Part shown: piece after piece, positions 1 to 5,677 of the stretch | Layout: each line of letters begins with the position of its first letter | Position numbering within the stretch: the stretch's first letter is position 1 | Virus record (IMG/VR): IMGVR_UViG_2778260996_000009 | Coordinates: 1-5,677 of that record | DNA length: 5,677 nucleotides | DNA from: a virus | Lineage: Duplodnaviria; Heunggongvirae; Uroviricota; Caudoviricetes | Direction: 5' to 3' (one strand) | Program-made: the position numbers and the translations under genes | The notes under the pieces: generated by a model | What the model saw: the letters and a program-made list of their open reading frames with translations, nothing else | The model's database searches: none | Told to the model about the DNA's origin: nothing

Positions 1-375
1 GCACCACCCCGTCAGTAGCTGAACAGGAGGGACAGCTGATAGAAACAGAAGCCACTGGAGCACCTCAAAAACACCATCATACACTAAATCAGTAAGTTGG
101 CAGCATCACCTATCACCAGAGTTTAATGTGTGATTTTTTATTTATCGTCGAACCTGGATTGTTTATCATTGGCCTTAACAAAGTTAACGGCTAATAAGAT
201 TATTTCCATCACTTCGTGAGAGCTTCATGCCTTGAGAGGATCTCAATTTTCTTTTGCAATGAGACAGGCGCTTCCTGTTGTTATGGTATAGTACCCCGCT
301 ATTGAGCCTCCTGAATAGTGATGCTGAATAACATAACCCCATGATATATCGATAAAATAATCTCTACATTTGAAA

Positions 376-498
376 ATGCACGGTAATTCTGAAATGCAAA
401 AAATCAACCAAACCAGCGCAATGCCTGAAAAAACTGACGTTCACTGGAGTGGTCGGTTTAGCGTTGCACCAATGCTCGATAGGATGTACCGTTTTTGA
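376..498 (+). pseudogene. dusA: Truncated 5' fragment of tRNA-dihydrouridine synthase A, interrupted by element insertion; first ~35 codons DusA-like, then divergent tail and TGA stop
   Basis: Translation from ATG 376 (in frame with ATG 421) gives MHGNSEMQKINQTSAMPEKTDVHWSGRFSVAPMLD followed by RMYRF and a stop. The RFSVAPMLD segment matches the conserved N-terminal motif of DusA-type enzymes, which normally continue with WTDRH.RYF. The frame instead diverges after codon D at ~480 and stops at 496-498. No convincing Shine-Dalgarno lies upstream of 376, so the true start could be 376 or a later in-frame ATG. Identity rests on my recall of the DusA N-terminus, not on a search. Confidence 0.55.
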
Positions 499-500
499 AA
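470..500. other. Inferred host/element junction (att core region) inside the dusA 5' end
   Basis: This is where the DusA-like reading frame stops resembling DusA (after ...APMLD, ~480). Elements carrying dusA-specific integrases are known to insert in the 5' end of dusA. The exact core boundaries cannot be set without the other junction or an uninterrupted dusA. Confidence 0.35.
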
Positions 501-555
501 AACAACTAGTTATACACTTTGTGGGAGCCTATTGGGAACCTGAAGTTTTGCTCTT

Positions 556-575
556 TCTATTCATATCTATTCATA
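556..575. repeat. Perfect tandem direct repeat tctattcata x2
   Basis: Read directly: tctattcata at 556-565 and again at 566-575, in the non-coding region between the inferred att junction and the first element gene. Possible protein-binding site (arm-type, IHF or operator); function unknown. Confidence 0.5.
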
Positions 576-600
576 AAGCACCATTTGCTGCCTTATCTGA

Positions 601-629
601 TTGACCAAAAACAACCGCGGTTATAGACT
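601..629 (+). promoter_or_regulatory. Candidate sigma70 promoter for the 683..1673 operon
   Basis: TTGACC at 601-606 (5/6 match to the -35 consensus), a 17-bp spacer, then TAGACT at 624-629 (4/6 match to the -10 consensus), about 55 bp upstream of the ATG at 683. A short inverted repeat ctaag-N7-cttag (643-659) follows. Sequence-only prediction. Confidence 0.3.
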
Positions 630-682
630 TTGCTCCAAATAGCTAAGGCTATTGCTTAGTAAGTAAAACAGTTGAGGTTGCC

Positions 683-1222
683 ATGAATCCGTTTAACGCC
701 ATTACTTTTGCTGCATTGTGCGGGCCTCTGGCTTGTCCTGCTGCTATGGCGCAGGAGTTCATCATCCAGCCAGCCCCTGTGATTGCTAAACCTTTTGAGT
801 ACTCTCCTTCTGTTGAGGAATTCTCACGCAAAATGGAAGAGGGTAAGGAGATCTTGCAAAAGTTAACAATTGCAGCAGATGACTACTATATCTGTTTGAT
901 TGATCTTAATAGCCAAGATGCTCGCGAGTTTGTTTCCAAAAACGGGACAGATACGACAGAGGCATGCGAAATGTTCCTGCGTGCTTTTGAAGAAGAAGTG
1001 AAGCGTACAATTGAATCGCCTCTGCCTGAATTTATCAGGTCAGAACTGAAGGTTTACTGGCGTCATATTGCTAAAGCTCGCTCATCTGTCACTCGCCTTA
1101 ACAATTACATAAAGAGCATATTTAAAGAAACTGTTACTTTTAGCGGGCGCGCGGATCTTGCTGAAATTGCAGCACTAGCTAGTCACACATCAAATAAGCT
1201 AAAATCGATGCAATTTCACTAA
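683..1222 (+). CDS. Hypothetical protein, 179 aa, with hydrophobic N-terminal segment (possible signal peptide); candidate partner of the downstream YafO-like toxin
   Basis: ORF with a Shine-Dalgarno GAGGT at 673-677, 5 nt before the ATG at 683. The N-terminus MNPFNAITFAALCGPLACPAAMA-QEF is hydrophobic with an AxA-like cleavage motif but has no basic n-region, so export is uncertain. I recognise no family in it. It lies 16 nt upstream of the YafO-like gene on the same strand. Confidence 0.65.
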   Translation: MNPFNAITFAALCGPLACPAAMAQEFIIQPAPVIAKPFEYSPSVEEFSRKMEEGKEILQKLTIAADDYYICLIDLNSQDAREFVSKNGTDTTEACEMFLRAFEEEVKRTIESPLPEFIRSELKVYWRHIAKARSSVTRLNNYIKSIFKETVTFSGRADLAEIAALASHTSNKLKSMQFH

Positions 1223-1238
1223 CCGATAGCGGACGACC

Positions 1239-1673
1239 ATGCATCTAGAAGTCTCTATTAATCCAGAAACTAGAGCTGAATTTTTTGATGAAGTTTTTCT
1301 CAAATTCCCGGAGCTAGAGTCTTCTATCATTGATGATTTCAAGAGATACAAAGCAACCGGTGAGCTTCCGCATTATTTCGGTAGGGACGTTGCGTATACT
1401 CAGCCTTATGGTGCTTTTCGGGCTGGGTTGATGCATATCCATCTTTGTCTACCGCCAAACAAGTTTCCCGAGAAACTTCCACAACCGGATAGGGTCTGCA
1501 AGAAAGGTGATCCTGATAATGATGCTTGTCTTGTGTATGTCCAAGGTGAGCTTTATGAGAATAAATATTCACTCATTGCTATTATGTATCCCGATGCACA
1601 TGAAAAAGCAAGAAAACATGATGTGATGAGCTATCTGGCGCGAATTGCCCAGAATTATAAAGATGAAAACTAA
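1239..1673 (+). CDS. YafO-family toxin-like protein (ribosome-dependent mRNA interferase family), 144 aa
   Basis: The translation contains FGRDVAYT, MHIHLCLPPNKFP, CLVYVQGELYE, LIAIMYPDAHEKARKHD and YLARIA. These align with the E. coli YafO segments FGRDALYD, AHIHLANENNPFP, HLVYCQGAFDE, LIAILKPEPHKLARDN and KMAEA as I recall them. Weak SD (GGA) upstream of the ATG at 1239. The TAA stop at 1671-1673 is followed directly by a terminator hairpin. Confidence 0.65.
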   Translation: MHLEVSINPETRAEFFDEVFLKFPELESSIIDDFKRYKATGELPHYFGRDVAYTQPYGAFRAGLMHIHLCLPPNKFPEKLPQPDRVCKKGDPDNDACLVYVQGELYENKYSLIAIMYPDAHEKARKHDVMSYLARIAQNYKDEN

Positions 1674-1693
1674 CCCGCCGAAGCGGGTTTTTT
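1673..1693. terminator. Rho-independent terminator hairpin shared by convergent transcription units
   Basis: Stem ACCCGC (1673-1678), loop CGAA (1679-1682), stem GCGGGT (1683-1688), followed by a run of six T (1688-1693) on the plus strand. It sits between the plus-strand stop (1671-1673) and the minus-strand stop (1700-1702). The minus-strand side has a weaker U-tract. Confidence 0.7.
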
Positions 1694-1699
1694 GTGAGA

Positions 1700-1972
1700 T
1701 TAGTTATTTATTTTCCTATTTGTTCTTACCCTCTCCCATTCAATTCTGCCTTCTTCACGCCGTTTATCTATATATTCAGCAAGATCCTGAATGTTGATGC
1801 AGCGCTTTGCTTTCTGTGATGTACCAACACGATAAGTCGGGATCGGCAACTGGCATGCATTTGCTTTCGCTTCTGCTGTGTTAGGGCTCATACCGAAATA
1901 CTTTTGGCATACAGCTGACAGCTCAATGTTTGGGGTATTGAATTCAGCCATCAGTAAAAACAAGGTGTTCAT
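1700..1972 (-). CDS. PrtN-family DNA-binding protein (excisionase-like / pyocin-activator-like), ~90 aa
   Basis: From ATG 1972 the protein reads MNTLFLLMAEFNTP...LPIPTYRVGTSQKAKRCINIQDLAEYIDKRREEG, which resembles the N-terminus and core of PrtN-family proteins (MNT.FLLMA ... DLA.Y.D.RR). The ATG at 1972 has GGAG 6 nt upstream. The ORF track begins at GTG 1999 without an SD, so 1972 is preferred. Confidence 0.7.
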   Translation of the reverse strand: MNTLFLLMAEFNTPNIELSAVCQKYFGMSPNTAEAKANACQLPIPTYRVGTSQKAKRCINIQDLAEYIDKRREEGRIEWERVRTNRKINN

Positions 1973-2008
1973 AATTTTCTCCATCAAAACCGGCTGCACC
2001 CGGGAAAA

Positions 2009-2581
2009 TCATAATTCTGTGCTGGTGGCAGGAATTAATTTCTGCCAGATAGCGGAAACATATTTTGCCTGATGACGGGCATCAGCCAGGGCGTTGTGCC
2101 GTTCGCCATCGAAAGGCATGTCCATTTTGGGGTCGAATCCGATGGAACGCCCAAGCGTAACGATCGTGCGTACATCGTGGTCATTCCAGTACGCCCACGG
2201 GCAGATTTGTCCTGCTCGCTCATAAGCTCCACGTAAAATTACGTTGTCGAAGGTGGCCCCGTTACCCCAGACTTTTAAATATTTCGTATTGTCTGCGTGC
2301 CGGTTAATGAAATGGTTTAGTTCTGAGAGAGCATCGCTGATCGACAAAGTATCATCAATACAGATTGCAGCTCGCGCTTCAGGGCTTTGTTTCAACCACC
2401 ACAGGATGGTATCGCCGTCAGGTGTAGCTCCTTGCTTCATAGCACTGTCCAGGCTGACAACCGCATAGAATTCTTGTCCGATGTCTCCGGTTTCTGGAGT
2501 GAAGAACACCGCGCCAATAGAAACGATCGGCGCATCCTTATTTTTCCCCATCGTCTCAAGGTCGATCATTAAGTTGTTCAT
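2009..2581 (-). CDS. DEDDh-type 3'-5' exonuclease (DnaQ-like), ~190 aa
   Basis: The three exonuclease motifs are visible: MIDLETMG (Exo I, D-x-E), VWGNGATFDNVIL (Exo II) and ERHNALADARHQAKY (Exo III with His). An SD AGGAGGTG lies 5 nt upstream of the ATG at 2581. The GTG at 2584 used by the ORF track is too close to the SD. The ATG overlaps the stop of the upstream DUF551 gene (TGATG). Confidence 0.8.
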   Translation of the reverse strand: MNNLMIDLETMGKNKDAPIVSIGAVFFTPETGDIGQEFYAVVSLDSAMKQGATPDGDTILWWLKQSPEARAAICIDDTLSISDALSELNHFINRHADNTKYLKVWGNGATFDNVILRGAYERAGQICPWAYWNDHDVRTIVTLGRSIGFDPKMDMPFDGERHNALADARHQAKYVSAIWQKLIPATSTEL

Positions 2582-3159
2582 CACTTCACCTCCTGCGGCG
2601 GTTCCGGTAGCGGCATCCAGTGAGTTGCTTGCTCAATACCATTACCCGACTTAATCGTTGCATCTCCGCGCCGAAAAGTGCTTCCGGTATAGCGTGCGGA
2701 GCATATTAGCGGTTCAACCAGAGAGCTATCGAAATTCACCGAAATGAGCACGTTCTGATTCTTCTCAGGCATTCGCTCACTACAGCTTATCCAACTATCC
2801 GGAGTTACCGGAGAGTTGGTTGACGTTTCCGAGGTTTCCCGAAAATTATTGGTTGACGAATCCTTATTTTCCCGAAAGTTTCCAGCCTGAAGCATGGCGG
2901 CGCGGTGACACCAGATAATCCAGCCAAGCGCCATATCCCATGCCATGTATTCTCTATCGCCATTTTTCGCCCTGCGGCGATCTACAGATTCCCCGAAACG
3001 CTTCTCCATAAATAATTCATAGGCTGCTCGTTCATCCGATACTGCTGCCAGTGATGCCAGTGCAATTCGTGCCAGTTCCATTTGTTCGCCACGGGTAAGT
3101 CCGTTTCCAAGCGGATTTTTAATGAACAATTCAATACGTTCTTTGGTAATAGTGGTCAT
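2581..3159 (-). CDS. Phage protein with C-terminal DUF551-like domain, 192 aa, with internal 11-aa tandem repeat linker
   Basis: The C-terminus ...NVLISVNF...CSARYTGSTF...EQATHWMPLPEPP matches the DUF551 signature (W.PLPEPP) common in enterobacterial prophage early regions. An SD AAGGAG lies 6 nt upstream of the ATG at 3159. The N-terminal ~110 aa are unassigned. Confidence 0.7.
   Translation of the reverse strand: MTTITKERIELFIKNPLGNGLTRGEQMELARIALASLAAVSDERAAYELFMEKRFGESVDRRRAKNGDREYMAWDMALGWIIWCHRAAMLQAGNFRENKDSSTNNFRETSETSTNSPVTPDSWISCSERMPEKNQNVLISVNFDSSLVEPLICSARYTGSTFRRGDATIKSGNGIEQATHWMPLPEPPQEVK
2816..2881. repeat. Imperfect 33-bp tandem repeat (2 units, ~25/33 identical) inside the DUF551 CDS
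   Basis: Unit 1 (2816-2848) ttggttgacgtttccgaggtttcccgaaaatta and unit 2 (2849-2881) ttggttgacgaatccttattttcccgaaagttt. On the coding (minus) strand they encode NFRENKDSSTN / NFRETSETSTN. Confidence 0.6.
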
Positions 3160-3169
3160 GTGTTACTCC

Positions 3170-3433
3170 TTAACCCGCAGTGCTTTCAACTGACGAGGGG
3201 AACAAAATCTTTTCTTTAAATCCGGCATTCATATCATGGACAGCAACACACCAATCCATTGACGAACGATCATCAAGAGCCTCCATGATTTCATCCATGC
3301 GGCGTAGGTCATACAGGTAAATGCTTTTATCGCCAATGGTGTAAAAACCAATTTTTTTCGGTGACGGGCAGCGATCAAGAACGTTCTGTAATTCGCTCAA
3401 CCATGCCTGTTCCTTTTTTGTCAAAGTTGCCAT
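3170..3433 (-). CDS. Hypothetical phage early protein, 87 aa
   Basis: ORF with a strong SD AAGGAG 6 nt upstream of the ATG at 3433. It starts 1 nt after the stop of the upstream Ead-like gene. No recognisable motif. Confidence 0.6.
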   Translation of the reverse strand: MATLTKKEQAWLSELQNVLDRCPSPKKIGFYTIGDKSIYLYDLRRMDEIMEALDDRSSMDWCVAVHDMNAGFKEKILFPSSVESTAG

Positions 3434-3434
3434 A

Positions 3435-3833
3435 TCACTCTCCTTTGATGCGAATGCCAGCGACGCGTAGTGCGTGTTCTAAGTCAATCAGGCAAAGCCA
3501 ACTGCCATTTTCTTTAGGTATCATGACATGTCGCTTATCAGCATTTATTGGGTGCCCATATCGAAGGTCGTAGCGAGTCGGTAATTGAACTTCCCTCGCT
3601 TCCAGTTCTGTAATGCGTTTGTTTTTAGCTTCTAGTTCATCCAGCAGCGCCAGCACGGTTTCTGGTCCGGTCAGAAATTTGAAGGCGTTGAGCACATCAA
3701 TATCCACACCGTAATCTTTAAGTTCCTGTTCACTTAACAAATCATCAGCAGCTGGCAACATTAACAGGCGTTCCATTGCTTGAATTGCACGTTCCGCCGC
3801 CTCACGCAGTGCCTGATAGTCAATCTTGCTCAC
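3435..3833 (-). CDS. Ead/Ea22-like family protein, 132 aa, GTG start
   Basis: The N-terminus MSKIDYQALREAAERAIQ resembles the conserved N-terminal segment (..QALREAAEKA..) of Ead/Ea22-like proteins from lambdoid prophage early-left regions. The start codon is GTG (rc of cac 3831-3833), preceded by a strong SD AAGGAGG with a 6-nt spacer, and overlaps the upstream stop (GTGA). Confidence 0.65.
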   Translation of the reverse strand: MSKIDYQALREAAERAIQAMERLLMLPAADDLLSEQELKDYGVDIDVLNAFKFLTGPETVLALLDELEAKNKRITELEAREVQLPTRYDLRYGHPINADKRHVMIPKENGSWLCLIDLEHALRVAGIRIKGE

Positions 3834-4069
3834 TGGTTGCCTCCTTTACGGATCTGCGCAGCGATGCACGAAAAAAAAGACTCTCGCGTATGACTGTTAA
3901 GAGCTGGCGCGAACGCCGCGTTAAGAACGGCAGCATCACAGCCGTCATCGATATAGAGCGCAATTTTTTTCTCCAGGCGTGCTTTGGCTTCCTGCAACTG
4001 CATACCCCGGCACGCACGCGGGATATACTCAGCAATTTGAGCGATAGATTTTTCGTTCTGTTTAAACAT
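3830..4069 (-). CDS. Hypothetical small phage protein, 79 aa
   Basis: ORF with an SD GAGGTG 4 nt upstream of the ATG at 4069. It overlaps the upstream gene by 8 nt and the downstream GTG start by 4 nt (translational coupling). No recognised family. Confidence 0.55.
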   Translation of the reverse strand: MFKQNEKSIAQIAEYIPRACRGMQLQEAKARLEKKIALYIDDGCDAAVLNAAFAPALNSHTRESFFSCIAAQIRKGGNQ

Positions 4070-4265
4070 GCTTCACCTCGATAGGCTTGATGGTGTCGAT
4101 CAGTAGTCGGCGGCGCGTATTTTCTGCAAAGTGGCGGCGTCCGGTTTCTTTGTGGTAAAACTCGTTTTTGCCGACGACCCACATCCGCTCTGTCTGGTGA
4201 AGTTTTTTTACCTGCGGGCCGTCTTTGGTGATCACAATGCCGGTATGGGTTTTTACGATTGTCAT
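4062..4265 (-). CDS. Hypothetical small basic phage protein, 67 aa
   Basis: ORF with an SD AGAGGTGG immediately upstream of the ATG at 4265. Its start overlaps the stop of the PAPS-reductase-like gene (ATGA). No recognised family. Confidence 0.55.
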   Translation of the reverse strand: MTIVKTHTGIVITKDGPQVKKLHQTERMWVVGKNEFYHKETGRRHFAENTRRRLLIDTIKPIEVKHV

Positions 4266-5140
4266 GCCACCACCTCTTCGAATTTCAATTCCAATTGATC
4301 ACCCCAGATTTCACATGACTCTGAACACGAGCCGGTATCGAATCGCCTGGCTTGCACCATCGCCTGATACAAATTTCTGTAGTCGCTGTCGGCATACATT
4401 CTGGCAATCCCGTCAAGGCTCAGATGACCACGGTACATAACGTCTTTATTTGTCTTTCGGTGACCATCCCGGACGTGTTTACCTGTAACCAGCTCATTAA
4501 AAACTCGCATCAGACCAGGTTCGTCTTTACATGCAAGCCCCAGCTTTTGCGTGGACTTTTTGATGCAGAAAACACAGTTCCCGAGGTGCTCCGGGATTTG
4601 CAAATCAAAAGGTTGTTTATGCCACCACCGGATAACATCCGACTTATCAAAATCAGATAGCTCGGCAAGATACCGGACGCCCGATTTCGGTTTCAGCCTA
4701 CGAGGTTCGTCTGCACGAATACCCAGCCATGTGATGTAATTCCCTCGTCCGAAATGGTCATCGCAGTATTTTGTGAAGGGGGTGAGTTTTAATCTGTCAG
4801 TGCAGAACGCGCCGCCGATGTATGGCGTGCCATATTTTTTTACCATGTCCATAAACGGTTTAAGCACCGGCATTCGTGTCTGAATATCCTTTGGTTCCCA
4901 TTCCGTATAACCATTTGGCTGCCCAAGCTCTGGATTTATATCGACCTGCAACACAGTTAGCGGTATGCCCCAGAACTTCACAACCTCCCGAATAAAGCGG
5001 TATGTCAGCGGATGTTCGCAACCGGTATCCATAAAGATGTAGCAGACGTTATTTCCAGTCTTTCTTTGTTCTTCCATCAGGTGAACAAGATATGCAGATG
5101 TTCTCCCGCCAGAAAAACTAACTACATGAGTTATGCACAT
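4262..5140 (-). CDS. Phosphoadenosine-phosphosulfate (PAPS) reductase-like PP-loop family protein, 292 aa
   Basis: The N-terminal VVSFSGGRTS is the PP-loop motif (SGGxDS-type) of the PAPS reductase / ATP-sulfurylase-like superfamily. The length is typical of phage-encoded PAPS-reductase-like proteins. The start overlaps the end of the HD gene by 10 nt. A Cys-rich C-terminus (CSESCEIWG) is present. Confidence 0.8.
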   Translation of the reverse strand: MCITHVVSFSGGRTSAYLVHLMEEQRKTGNNVCYIFMDTGCEHPLTYRFIREVVKFWGIPLTVLQVDINPELGQPNGYTEWEPKDIQTRMPVLKPFMDMVKKYGTPYIGGAFCTDRLKLTPFTKYCDDHFGRGNYITWLGIRADEPRRLKPKSGVRYLAELSDFDKSDVIRWWHKQPFDLQIPEHLGNCVFCIKKSTQKLGLACKDEPGLMRVFNELVTGKHVRDGHRKTNKDVMYRGHLSLDGIARMYADSDYRNLYQAMVQARRFDTGSCSESCEIWGDQLELKFEEVVA

Positions 5141-5667
5141 TTGCGTAATTCCGATAACTCGTTAAAACGTTCCATAAACATCCCGTAGGCATGGCCTGGT
5201 GACAGTGGAATAACTTTGAACATCTCTGTTGCCGGGATGCCTTCCAGTACAGGCCAGAAAGAGCCATCATCAAGCCCGAGATCGCGGCGTTCGGTTGCCA
5301 GCATAATGAGATCGGCATATTTCACTGGCGTGCTCATAACAGGAGGTAACCCGTATTTCTCACGGATTACGGCGTCTATTTTTTCTTCCATCCGTTTATA
5401 GTCAGGAAGAAGTCGTTTCAGTGGCGCGGGGATGTCCTGGCAATATGCTTCTGTTGCATCATGCATTAACGCTTCGAAAGCAAACTCCTGCGGTACCAGC
5501 TGGCTGCAAAGCACCGCATGTTGGGCGACGCTGTAGAAGTGTGAAAGATGCCCTGCAAAGCGACAGATATTTGAGAGGGAAACTGCGATATCGTTAATCA
5601 CGATGTCGTCTTTATTTATCTTGTCATAATAAAAATGCTTCCCGGAAAAAGTTTTAATAAATGACAT
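5131..5667 (-). CDS. HD-domain phosphohydrolase (YfbR/YfdR-like 5'-deoxynucleotidase family), 178 aa
   Basis: Contains the H...HD...D metal-binding pattern (VAQHAV ... EALMHDATEAY ... D). An SD GGAG lies 6 nt upstream of the ATG at 5667. The size and sequence resemble the prophage HD proteins of E. coli (YfdR-like), from memory. Confidence 0.8.
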   Translation of the reverse strand: MSFIKTFSGKHFYYDKINKDDIVINDIAVSLSNICRFAGHLSHFYSVAQHAVLCSQLVPQEFAFEALMHDATEAYCQDIPAPLKRLLPDYKRMEEKIDAVIREKYGLPPVMSTPVKYADLIMLATERRDLGLDDGSFWPVLEGIPATEMFKVIPLSPGHAYGMFMERFNELSELRKCA

Positions 5668-5677
5668 TTTGTTCTCC

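Follow-up and report, generated by a model that had tools for sequence, protein, structure and literature searches.

Organization of the two-gene cassette

This study concerns a stretch of 5,677 nucleotides (nt), positions 1 to 5,677 of the IMG/VR virus record IMGVR_UViG_2778260996_000009 (Caudoviricetes), which is referred to below as the window, and within it two adjacent genes on the plus strand. The first gene (positions 683-1222) encodes a protein of 179 amino acids (aa) that belongs to phrog_8416 and is a candidate antitoxin, hereafter the partner; the second (1239-1673) encodes a 144-aa YafO-family toxin assigned to phrog_1651. The window represents the left end of a lambdoid prophage integrated in the 5' end of the Escherichia coli gene dusA. 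A previous sequence-only reading of this DNA had singled out both open reading frames (ORFs), and their coordinates and strand are confirmed here. In the best reading of the locus, positions 601-1697 form an autonomous two-gene cassette of the toxin-antitoxin type, ~1.1 kb long, carried by the prophage as cargo (a moron).

The two genes, separated by 16 nt, are flanked by signals of their own. A consensus scan of the plus strand found a sigma-70 promoter-like site at 601-629 (TTGACC, a 17-nt spacer, TAGACT), and a Shine-Dalgarno sequence GAGG (674-677) lies 5 nt upstream of the partner ATG. Scanning both strands for terminators revealed a bidirectional intrinsic terminator at 1672-1697, a stem-loop (1672-1689) followed by a T tract; its hairpin is GC-rich, T tracts are present on both strands, and it also ends the convergent PrtN-like gene. 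The -35, -10 and Shine-Dalgarno blocks are retained in the cassettes of Phytobacter, Enterobacter, Pantoea and Rouxiella, which occupy different genomic positions, and thus the cassette carries its own expression signals; the extended motif GAGGTT is invariant across six aligned homologous upstream regions. The independent promoter and terminator supposed in the sequence-only reading were therefore both found, the former being conserved across genera.

Between the -10 element and the Shine-Dalgarno sequence lies the palindrome AATAGC-TAAG-GCTATT (638-653, plus strand) with 6-bp arms. The Pantoea copy of the cassette has the palindrome with paired changes, GATAAC-ACAA-GTTATC, and the site may be a candidate operator. 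Its interpretation as an RNA hairpin in the 5' untranslated region was rejected, as its stability equals that of shuffled sequence (z = 0.07). No LexA-box-like site was found near the promoter (560-690), and SOS control of the operon was rejected since the operon is without a LexA box. The GC content of the cassette is 42.5% (683-1673) versus 47.3% for positions 1700-5667, and the GC content at third codon positions is 34-40% versus roughly 43-62% in the adjacent phage genes. The cassette, which had appeared by eye to be more AT-rich than the phage genes, is so by computation as well, but the difference is modest.

Co-occurrence and co-divergence of the two genes

A genome scan with the toxin alignment, using one genome per species, yielded 31 loci, from Pantoea, Phytobacter, Enterobacter, Rouxiella, Photorhabdus, Xenorhabdus, Pseudomonas, Halomonas/Vreelandella, Carnimonas, the Orbaceae, and one Phycisphaerae metagenome-assembled genome (MAG). 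Nearly all taxa possessing the pair are Gammaproteobacteria. In each of the 31 genome loci the toxin gene is immediately preceded by the end of a same-strand ORF of 176-216 aa; 29 of these ORFs match the hidden Markov model of the enterobacterial partner, and for the remaining two the alignment relied on size and on C-terminal motifs. Further, the partner is found upstream of the toxin in all viral-contig loci with enough upstream DNA (51/51), with gaps ranging from -4 to +35 nt. Conversely, when the enterobacterial partner alignment was used as the query, the toxin gene was located downstream in 34/34 partner-anchored loci. Co-occurrence of homologs, which had been named as a check on the proposed pairing, is without exceptions in either direction.

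The two proteins also diverge together. Pairwise identities of partners and toxins correlate with r = 0.906 (Mantel p = 0.001, 62 non-identical pairs), the partner diverging about twice as fast (mean identity 27% vs 57% for the toxin). No conserved third gene, either a regulator or a chaperone, was found at the pair loci, and the small flanking ORFs are mutually unrelated. A pattern of this kind is characteristic of obligate antitoxin-toxin-type modules with two genes. Neither protein is truncated and the homologs of both are under purifying selection, and hence 683-1222 and 1239-1673 are not chance ORFs.

The sole locus outside the Gammaproteobacteria, in the Phycisphaerae MAG (PAQL01000031.1), is situated beside a CI/LexA-like repressor gene. 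It could be either a contig assigned to the wrong bin or a genuine transfer beyond this class.

The YafO-family toxin

The 144-aa product had been assigned to the YafO family from the motifs FGRD and HIHL. Both can be read directly in the protein, at aa 47-50 (nt 1377-1388) and aa 66-69 (nt 1434-1445), respectively, and the assignment is upheld by the Pfam profile YafO_toxin (PF13957), which matches over its positions 1-100 of 101 with E = 1.9e-21 and 76.5 bits (cut-off 25). The score with the NCBIfam YafO equivalog NF007377 is 75.8 bits, below the 153-bit cut-off, so the protein is a member of the PF13957 family and not an ortholog of E. coli K-12 YafO. In a BLASTP comparison, it is 36% identical to K-12 YafO over 117 aa (E = 2e-19), and the motifs FGRD, HIHL, LVY, and P..H are common to both. 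The clade to which the window toxin belongs comprises 43 clusters at 90% identity, reaching down to ~50% identity to it; the alignment of 31 clade sequences contains 21 invariant columns, including the motif positions shared with K-12 YafO.

The AlphaFold2 model of the toxin has a predicted local distance difference test score (pLDDT) of 95.7. Its best structural matches are HigB2, HigB1, RelE, YafQ, and YoeB, with sequence identity of only 7-17%. As modeled, the protein is of a confident RelE/HigB-type alpha/beta fold and a member of the RelE/ParE (BECR-fold) superfamily, in agreement with its family assignment. YafO is among the least understood toxins of the RelE superfamily. No solved YafO structure was detectable by sequence search, and no defense model of PADLOC-DB v2 matched the toxin. 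Judging from its family, the 144-aa protein is presumably toxic.

The partner family and its predicted fold

The only significant match of the partner is to phrog_8416, a family of uncharacterized function (E = 1.2e-84). Searches against Pfam, NCBIfam, PADLOC, and PDB sequences returned no significant match, and none of 22 divergent members of the partner family matched Pfam. The sole match in PADLOC-DB v2, to the unknown-function model 'CRISPR-T' (E = 0.017), was dismissed as chance, as were the weak matches to DUF5076 and EndoDuHalo (E = 0.11 each), PDB entry 2jpu (E = 0.029), and the SH3BP5 coiled coil (E = 0.024). The family is small, with 1.84 billion proteins yielding 81 clusters at 50% identity.

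The upstream protein had been described as lacking any recognizable antitoxin fold, and it indeed belongs neither to YafN/Phd nor to another catalogued family of antitoxins. K-12 YafN matches PF02604 (Phd/YefM), and the partner gave no alignment with it; helix-turn-helix (HTH), ribbon-helix-helix (RHH), AbrB, or Phd domains were not found in the partner by either Pfam or fold search.

The AlphaFold2 model of the partner (mean pLDDT 79.7) divides it into three parts. Residues 1-24 (683-754), the hydrophobic signal-peptide-like segment MNPFNAITFAALCGPLACPAAMA|Q, were delimited by hydrophobicity and A-x-A heuristics; in the model, residues 6-24 form a helix at pLDDT 62-70 that is detached from the rest of the protein. 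Residues 25-43 (755-811), according to the model and the alignment, are a disordered variable linker, with pLDDT < 50 at residues 30-37 and the least conserved alignment columns. The remainder, residues 44-179 (812-1219), is predicted to be a helical-bundle domain with a confident five-helix bundle at residues 44-175, which holds the family-wide motifs LRxxE and RRxxAKARS and the C-terminal LxxLAxxTT helix. The predicted fold is novel, and the protein is unrelated to YafN.

The N-terminus of the partner

The sequence-only reading had remarked on a hydrophobic, signal-peptide-like N-terminus of the partner, and this feature is not restricted to the E. coli protein. We applied a home-made heuristic with four requirements: a stretch of 10 or more uncharged residues, a peak hydrophobicity of 2.0 or more, an A-x-A-like end, and termination of the stretch at residue 12-45. 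It was passed by 74 of 86 partners, by none of 38 toxins, and by 26 of 176 background ORFs from the neighborhoods. A strongly hydrophobic window within the first 60 residues is present in 58 of 66 full-length family representatives. Many members display textbook signal-peptide features (MKTTLSICAAALSMALSSPNVLA|RE is one example), and Pseudomonas members have a basic n-region. By these measures, the signal-peptide-like N-terminus is a trait of the whole partner family; its reading as an export signal is a prediction based on heuristics.

In the enterobacterial clade, residues 1-33 (window 683-781), with the consensus MNPFNAITFAALCGPLAQPAAMAQEFIxQPAPV, are the best conserved part of the partner. 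The E. coli and Pantoea proteins are identical at 29 of 33 N-terminal residues versus 70 of 129 in the rest, and the corresponding codons contain 14 synonymous changes. Such changes combined with conserved amino acids exclude a constraint at the DNA level, and explanations of the conservation by an attachment-site (att) arm or an antisense feature were rejected, given the frequency of synonymous changes.

Possible mechanism and alternative explanations

We suggest, with a probability of about 0.55, that the helical domain of the partner neutralizes the toxin, that free partner is short-lived in the cytoplasm owing to its N-terminal targeting segment, and that the toxin is freed when expression ceases. 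The cassette would then be a type II toxin-antitoxin module in which the candidate antitoxin bears a signal for export or membrane targeting. The toxin would be a cytoplasmic YafO-family mRNA endonuclease of the RelE/ParE fold, arresting translation when free. The helical domain (~135 aa) of newly made partner would bind and neutralize it, and the antitoxin-then-toxin gene order is typical of YafO modules. Unbound partner could be cleared or destabilized through its Sec-type signal-like segment, by export, membrane insertion, or quality-control proteolysis, and such clearance would provide the short cytoplasmic lifetime needed by a type II antitoxin. If expression of the cassette were stopped or outrun, for instance upon prophage loss or shut-off by an infecting phage, the toxin would be freed, resulting in prophage maintenance (addiction) or abortive infection. 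In this scheme, we infer the toxicity, the direct neutralization, the export, and the biological role.

Several observations weigh against this explanation. The partner has no recognizable DNA-binding domain for autoregulation. The toxin is acidic, with an isoelectric point of 5.7 (family median ~6.0), and most RelE-type toxins are basic. The partner of the window passes the signal heuristic, but without a basic residue before the hydrophobic stretch; the n-region is net-positive in only 34 of the 74 heuristic-positive partners, and Halomonas-type partners have an amphipathic N-terminus unlike signal peptides. The conservation of the 33 N-terminal residues, as seen in the alignments, implies a sequence-specific role beyond generic targeting, and the fact that it exceeds that of the mature domain hints at more than a mere export signal, for which it would be atypical. 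Finally, a conventional signal peptide would place the partner domain in the periplasm with the toxin in the cytoplasm, which is hard to reconcile with simple neutralization.

Some of these features make a classical cytoplasmic type II pair a possible, if unlikely, alternative. The N-terminus would then be a sequence-specific element, such as a helix for toxin binding or dimerization, a degron recognized by a protease, or, in the manner of the chaperone-addiction region of antitoxins in toxin-antitoxin-chaperone (TAC) systems, a segment recognized by a chaperone. This would suit an enterobacterial N-terminus whose conservation exceeds that of the remaining protein, unlike ordinary signal peptides, an E. 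coli n-region devoid of basic residues, and the amphipathic, not hydrophobic, N-terminus of the Halomonas type, and would keep the partner in the compartment of the toxin. Across the family, however, it is the n-h-c character of the N-terminus that is kept while its sequence is not: many members begin with basic residues, the uncharged core comprises 10-20 residues rich in A/L/G/S/T, and the end is A-x-A-like. Nor does AlphaFold2 pack the N-terminal helix on the bundle, the two being joined by the linker with its pLDDT < 50, and the motifs conserved in all clades lie in the C-terminal helices and not in the N-terminus.

A rather speculative version of the export reading, which we consider improbable on present evidence, takes the partner for a true Sec substrate and export for the control point. 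Translocation, and not proteolysis by Lon or Clp, would shorten the life of the antitoxin, or else perturbation of the translocon or inner membrane during phage infection could change where the partner is located and thereby switch on the YafO RNase. If so, a functional signal peptide would be seen on an antitoxin for the first time, and secretion or envelope status would be linked directly to translation arrest.

Also improbable, in our opinion, is that the partner is an exported or inner-membrane envelope protein and not a stoichiometric cytoplasmic antitoxin, the pair being a sensor-effector or exclusion-plus-backup system. The partner would monitor or block membrane events, for example phage DNA entry or stress on the secretion machinery, and the RNase would be controlled indirectly or only by the partner precursor. 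The family-wide signal-like N-terminus, the near confinement of the family to diderm Gammaproteobacteria, and the frequent location of the cassette at moron sites adjoining tape-measure genes are all consistent with such a role, and membrane-associated BECR toxins sensing DNA passage have been proposed by Gerdes (PMC11980606). The gene order, spacing, and perfect co-inheritance are nevertheless those of a neutralizing antitoxin and its toxin. Moreover, a free RelE-fold toxin without a cytoplasmic inhibitor would be expected to be lethal, there is no third gene at the pair loci able to serve as the antitoxin, and the N-terminal tails on the cytoplasmic side are short and lack conservation.

That the cassette has decayed to a non-functional remnant, or is an artifact of annotation, with an inactive YafO-like protein and a functionally unrelated upstream ORF, is scarcely credible: although the partner is only a 'hypothetical protein' in RefSeq and its label 'YafM antitoxin' elsewhere is likely a misnomer, both proteins are full-length and conserved over ~60 distinct pairs, the toxin keeps its 21 invariant positions and is modeled at a pLDDT of 95.7, the partner is under purifying selection at the amino-acid level, and near-identical copies exist in 48 complete E. 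coli genomes and two isolated phages.

Comparison with known systems

One of the closest known systems is the YafN-YafO pair of the K-12 operon dinB-yafN-yafO-yafP. The toxins belong to the same PF13957 family and share motifs, and in both cases the gene in the antitoxin position comes first and is tightly spaced from the toxin gene. An antitoxin-then-toxin gene order is likewise listed for PF_YafO by Gerdes (PMC11980606). The differences are in the partner, a helical 179-aa protein with a signal-like N-terminus compared with the 97-aa YafN of the Phd/YefM type, and in the setting: the present pair is carried at dusA by a prophage, under a promoter of its own, and the K-12 pair belongs to the SOS-regulated dinB operon. 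More generally, the antitoxins of RelE/ParE toxins (HigB2, Mycobacterium tuberculosis HigB1, RelE, YafQ, and YoeB) are DNA-binding proteins of the HTH, RHH, or Phd/YefM type, whereas the partner is predicted to have none of these folds.

TAC systems, such as HigBA with its SecB-like chaperone (mentioned in PMC11980606), connect a RelE-superfamily toxin with protein export and chaperones, and HigB1, a structural neighbor of the YafO model, is a TAC toxin. The antitoxin of a TAC system carries an aggregation-prone segment that needs the SecB-like chaperone. In contrast, no conserved chaperone gene adjoins the present pair, and its hydrophobic element is N-terminal and signal-like, whereas the chaperone-addiction region of TAC antitoxins is C-terminal.

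ToxM, a BECR-fold toxin fused to a transmembrane domain, has been put forward as the first possible membrane-associated type II toxin-antitoxin system (Gerdes 2025, PMC11980606). It resembles the present pair as a proposed membrane-associated type II system built around a RelE-superfamily toxin. The membrane segment of ToxM is on the toxin, whereas here the predicted targeting signal is on the partner and the heuristic was passed by 0/38 toxins.

The cassette can also be compared with prophage morons expressed in the lysogen: it is an independent promoter-to-terminator unit inserted at variable slots, one product of which is predicted to be envelope-targeted. Superinfection-exclusion genes with membrane-located products, such as HK97 gp15, occur beside the tape-measure genes of other phages. 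Unlike morons of the HK97 gp15 type, the present cassette is strictly a two-gene unit and includes a predicted RNase toxin.

In the literature, YafO genes of Pseudomonas prophages were counted as lone toxins (PMC12066637), and for E. coli YafO 13 partner clusters were reported, only 8% of them known (PMC10790755). Our literature searches retrieved no description of the partner family, of a signal-peptide-bearing or periplasmic antitoxin, or of a YafO defense system. The present analysis defines one family of YafO partners, which throughout Gammaproteobacteria and their prophages is obligately linked with a distinct YafO clade. The family is distinguished by its export-signal-like N-terminus, a feature that, according to the literature searches, no described antitoxin has. 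If the partner neutralizes the toxin, it would represent a new antitoxin fold and raise a testable question, namely how a protein targeted out of the cytoplasm controls a cytoplasmic RNase. If the cassette serves in defense, temperate phages would possess in it a new candidate system as compact as ~1.1 kb.

Mobility of the cassette

Temperate phages carrying the cassette have hosts in E. coli, Pantoea, Photorhabdus, Pseudomonas, and Halomonas. Its location at the att-proximal end is particular to the E. coli phage; elsewhere the cassette resides inside tail-gene modules, for instance between tape-measure and minor-tail genes, between tail-tube, chaperone, DUF6246, or ORF6N genes and tape-measure genes, or between the gpV-like and baseplate-J (gpJ) genes of P2-like tails. 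Additional sites are beside a CI/LexA-like repressor gene, beside a VgrG gene, and in ordinary chromosomal neighborhoods. The siphovirus-like prophages of other genera repeatedly have the cassette adjoining the tape-measure gene (six loci, with ~3-4 kb around the pair), and this adjacency points to a preferred moron insertion site.

In a related dusA prophage of E. coli O157:H7, the same att-proximal slot is occupied by two unrelated hypothetical genes (1748-2651 of that locus). Thus, the cassette is interchangeable prophage cargo, as had been proposed from its position, and the slot is variable. The O157:H7 genes encode proteins of 177 and 57 aa that have no Pfam match and are unrelated to the partner; they are candidate alternative cargo.

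The dusA junction and the adjacent prophage genes

The host part of the window begins with the terminal portion of an IS1 element (positions 1 to ~110) inserted upstream of dusA. This segment has matches at thousands of places in E. coli genomes, under features annotated as IS1-family transposase; its identification as cloning-vector DNA, from a likeness to pACYC184, was rejected, as it is the IS1 end. Positions 111-479 are the dusA upstream region and the first dusA codons. The 5' fragment of dusA (370-479, plus strand; translation MKMHGNSEMQKINQTSAMPEKTDVHWSGRFSVAPMLD) ends at the prophage junction at ~479/480, and in comparison with thousands of E. coli genomes the identity to uninterrupted dusA stops at position 479. 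The end of this fragment defines the att-proximal position of the cassette.

The cassette lies on the plus strand between the dusA junction and the first phage gene, and the prophage genes from position 1700 onward are on the minus strand, so that its orientation and placement are as the sequence-only reading had described them. The first prophage gene (1700-1999, minus strand) encodes a PrtN-family protein (PF11112) that also matches phrog_1300, 'excisionase'. It is followed on the same strand by genes for a Rv2179c-like 3'-5' exonuclease, DUF551, Ead/Ea22, PAPS-reductase-like, and YfbR/YfdR-like HD-domain proteins. The integrase gene is not at the dusA-fragment end of the prophage.

The 1.3 kb with the gene pair are present at 99.8-99.9% identity in 48 of 5,426 complete E. 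coli genomes and also in two isolated temperate phages, PhiR40_1 and PhiR55_1. The records of these phages name the two genes 'YafM antitoxin' and 'YafO toxin'; in PhiR40_1 (PV340560.1), the former label sits on the partner gene, at 222-761. YafM of K-12 is an unrelated transposase-like protein, and the label appears to be an automatic misnaming of the gene in the place of YafN. RefSeq names the partner 'hypothetical protein' and the toxin 'YafO family toxin'. The interrupted dusA frame (370-498) continues for a few codons into the phage DNA, ending in …APMLDRMYRF before a stop codon, and is annotated in RefSeq as a partial tRNA-dihydrouridine synthase.

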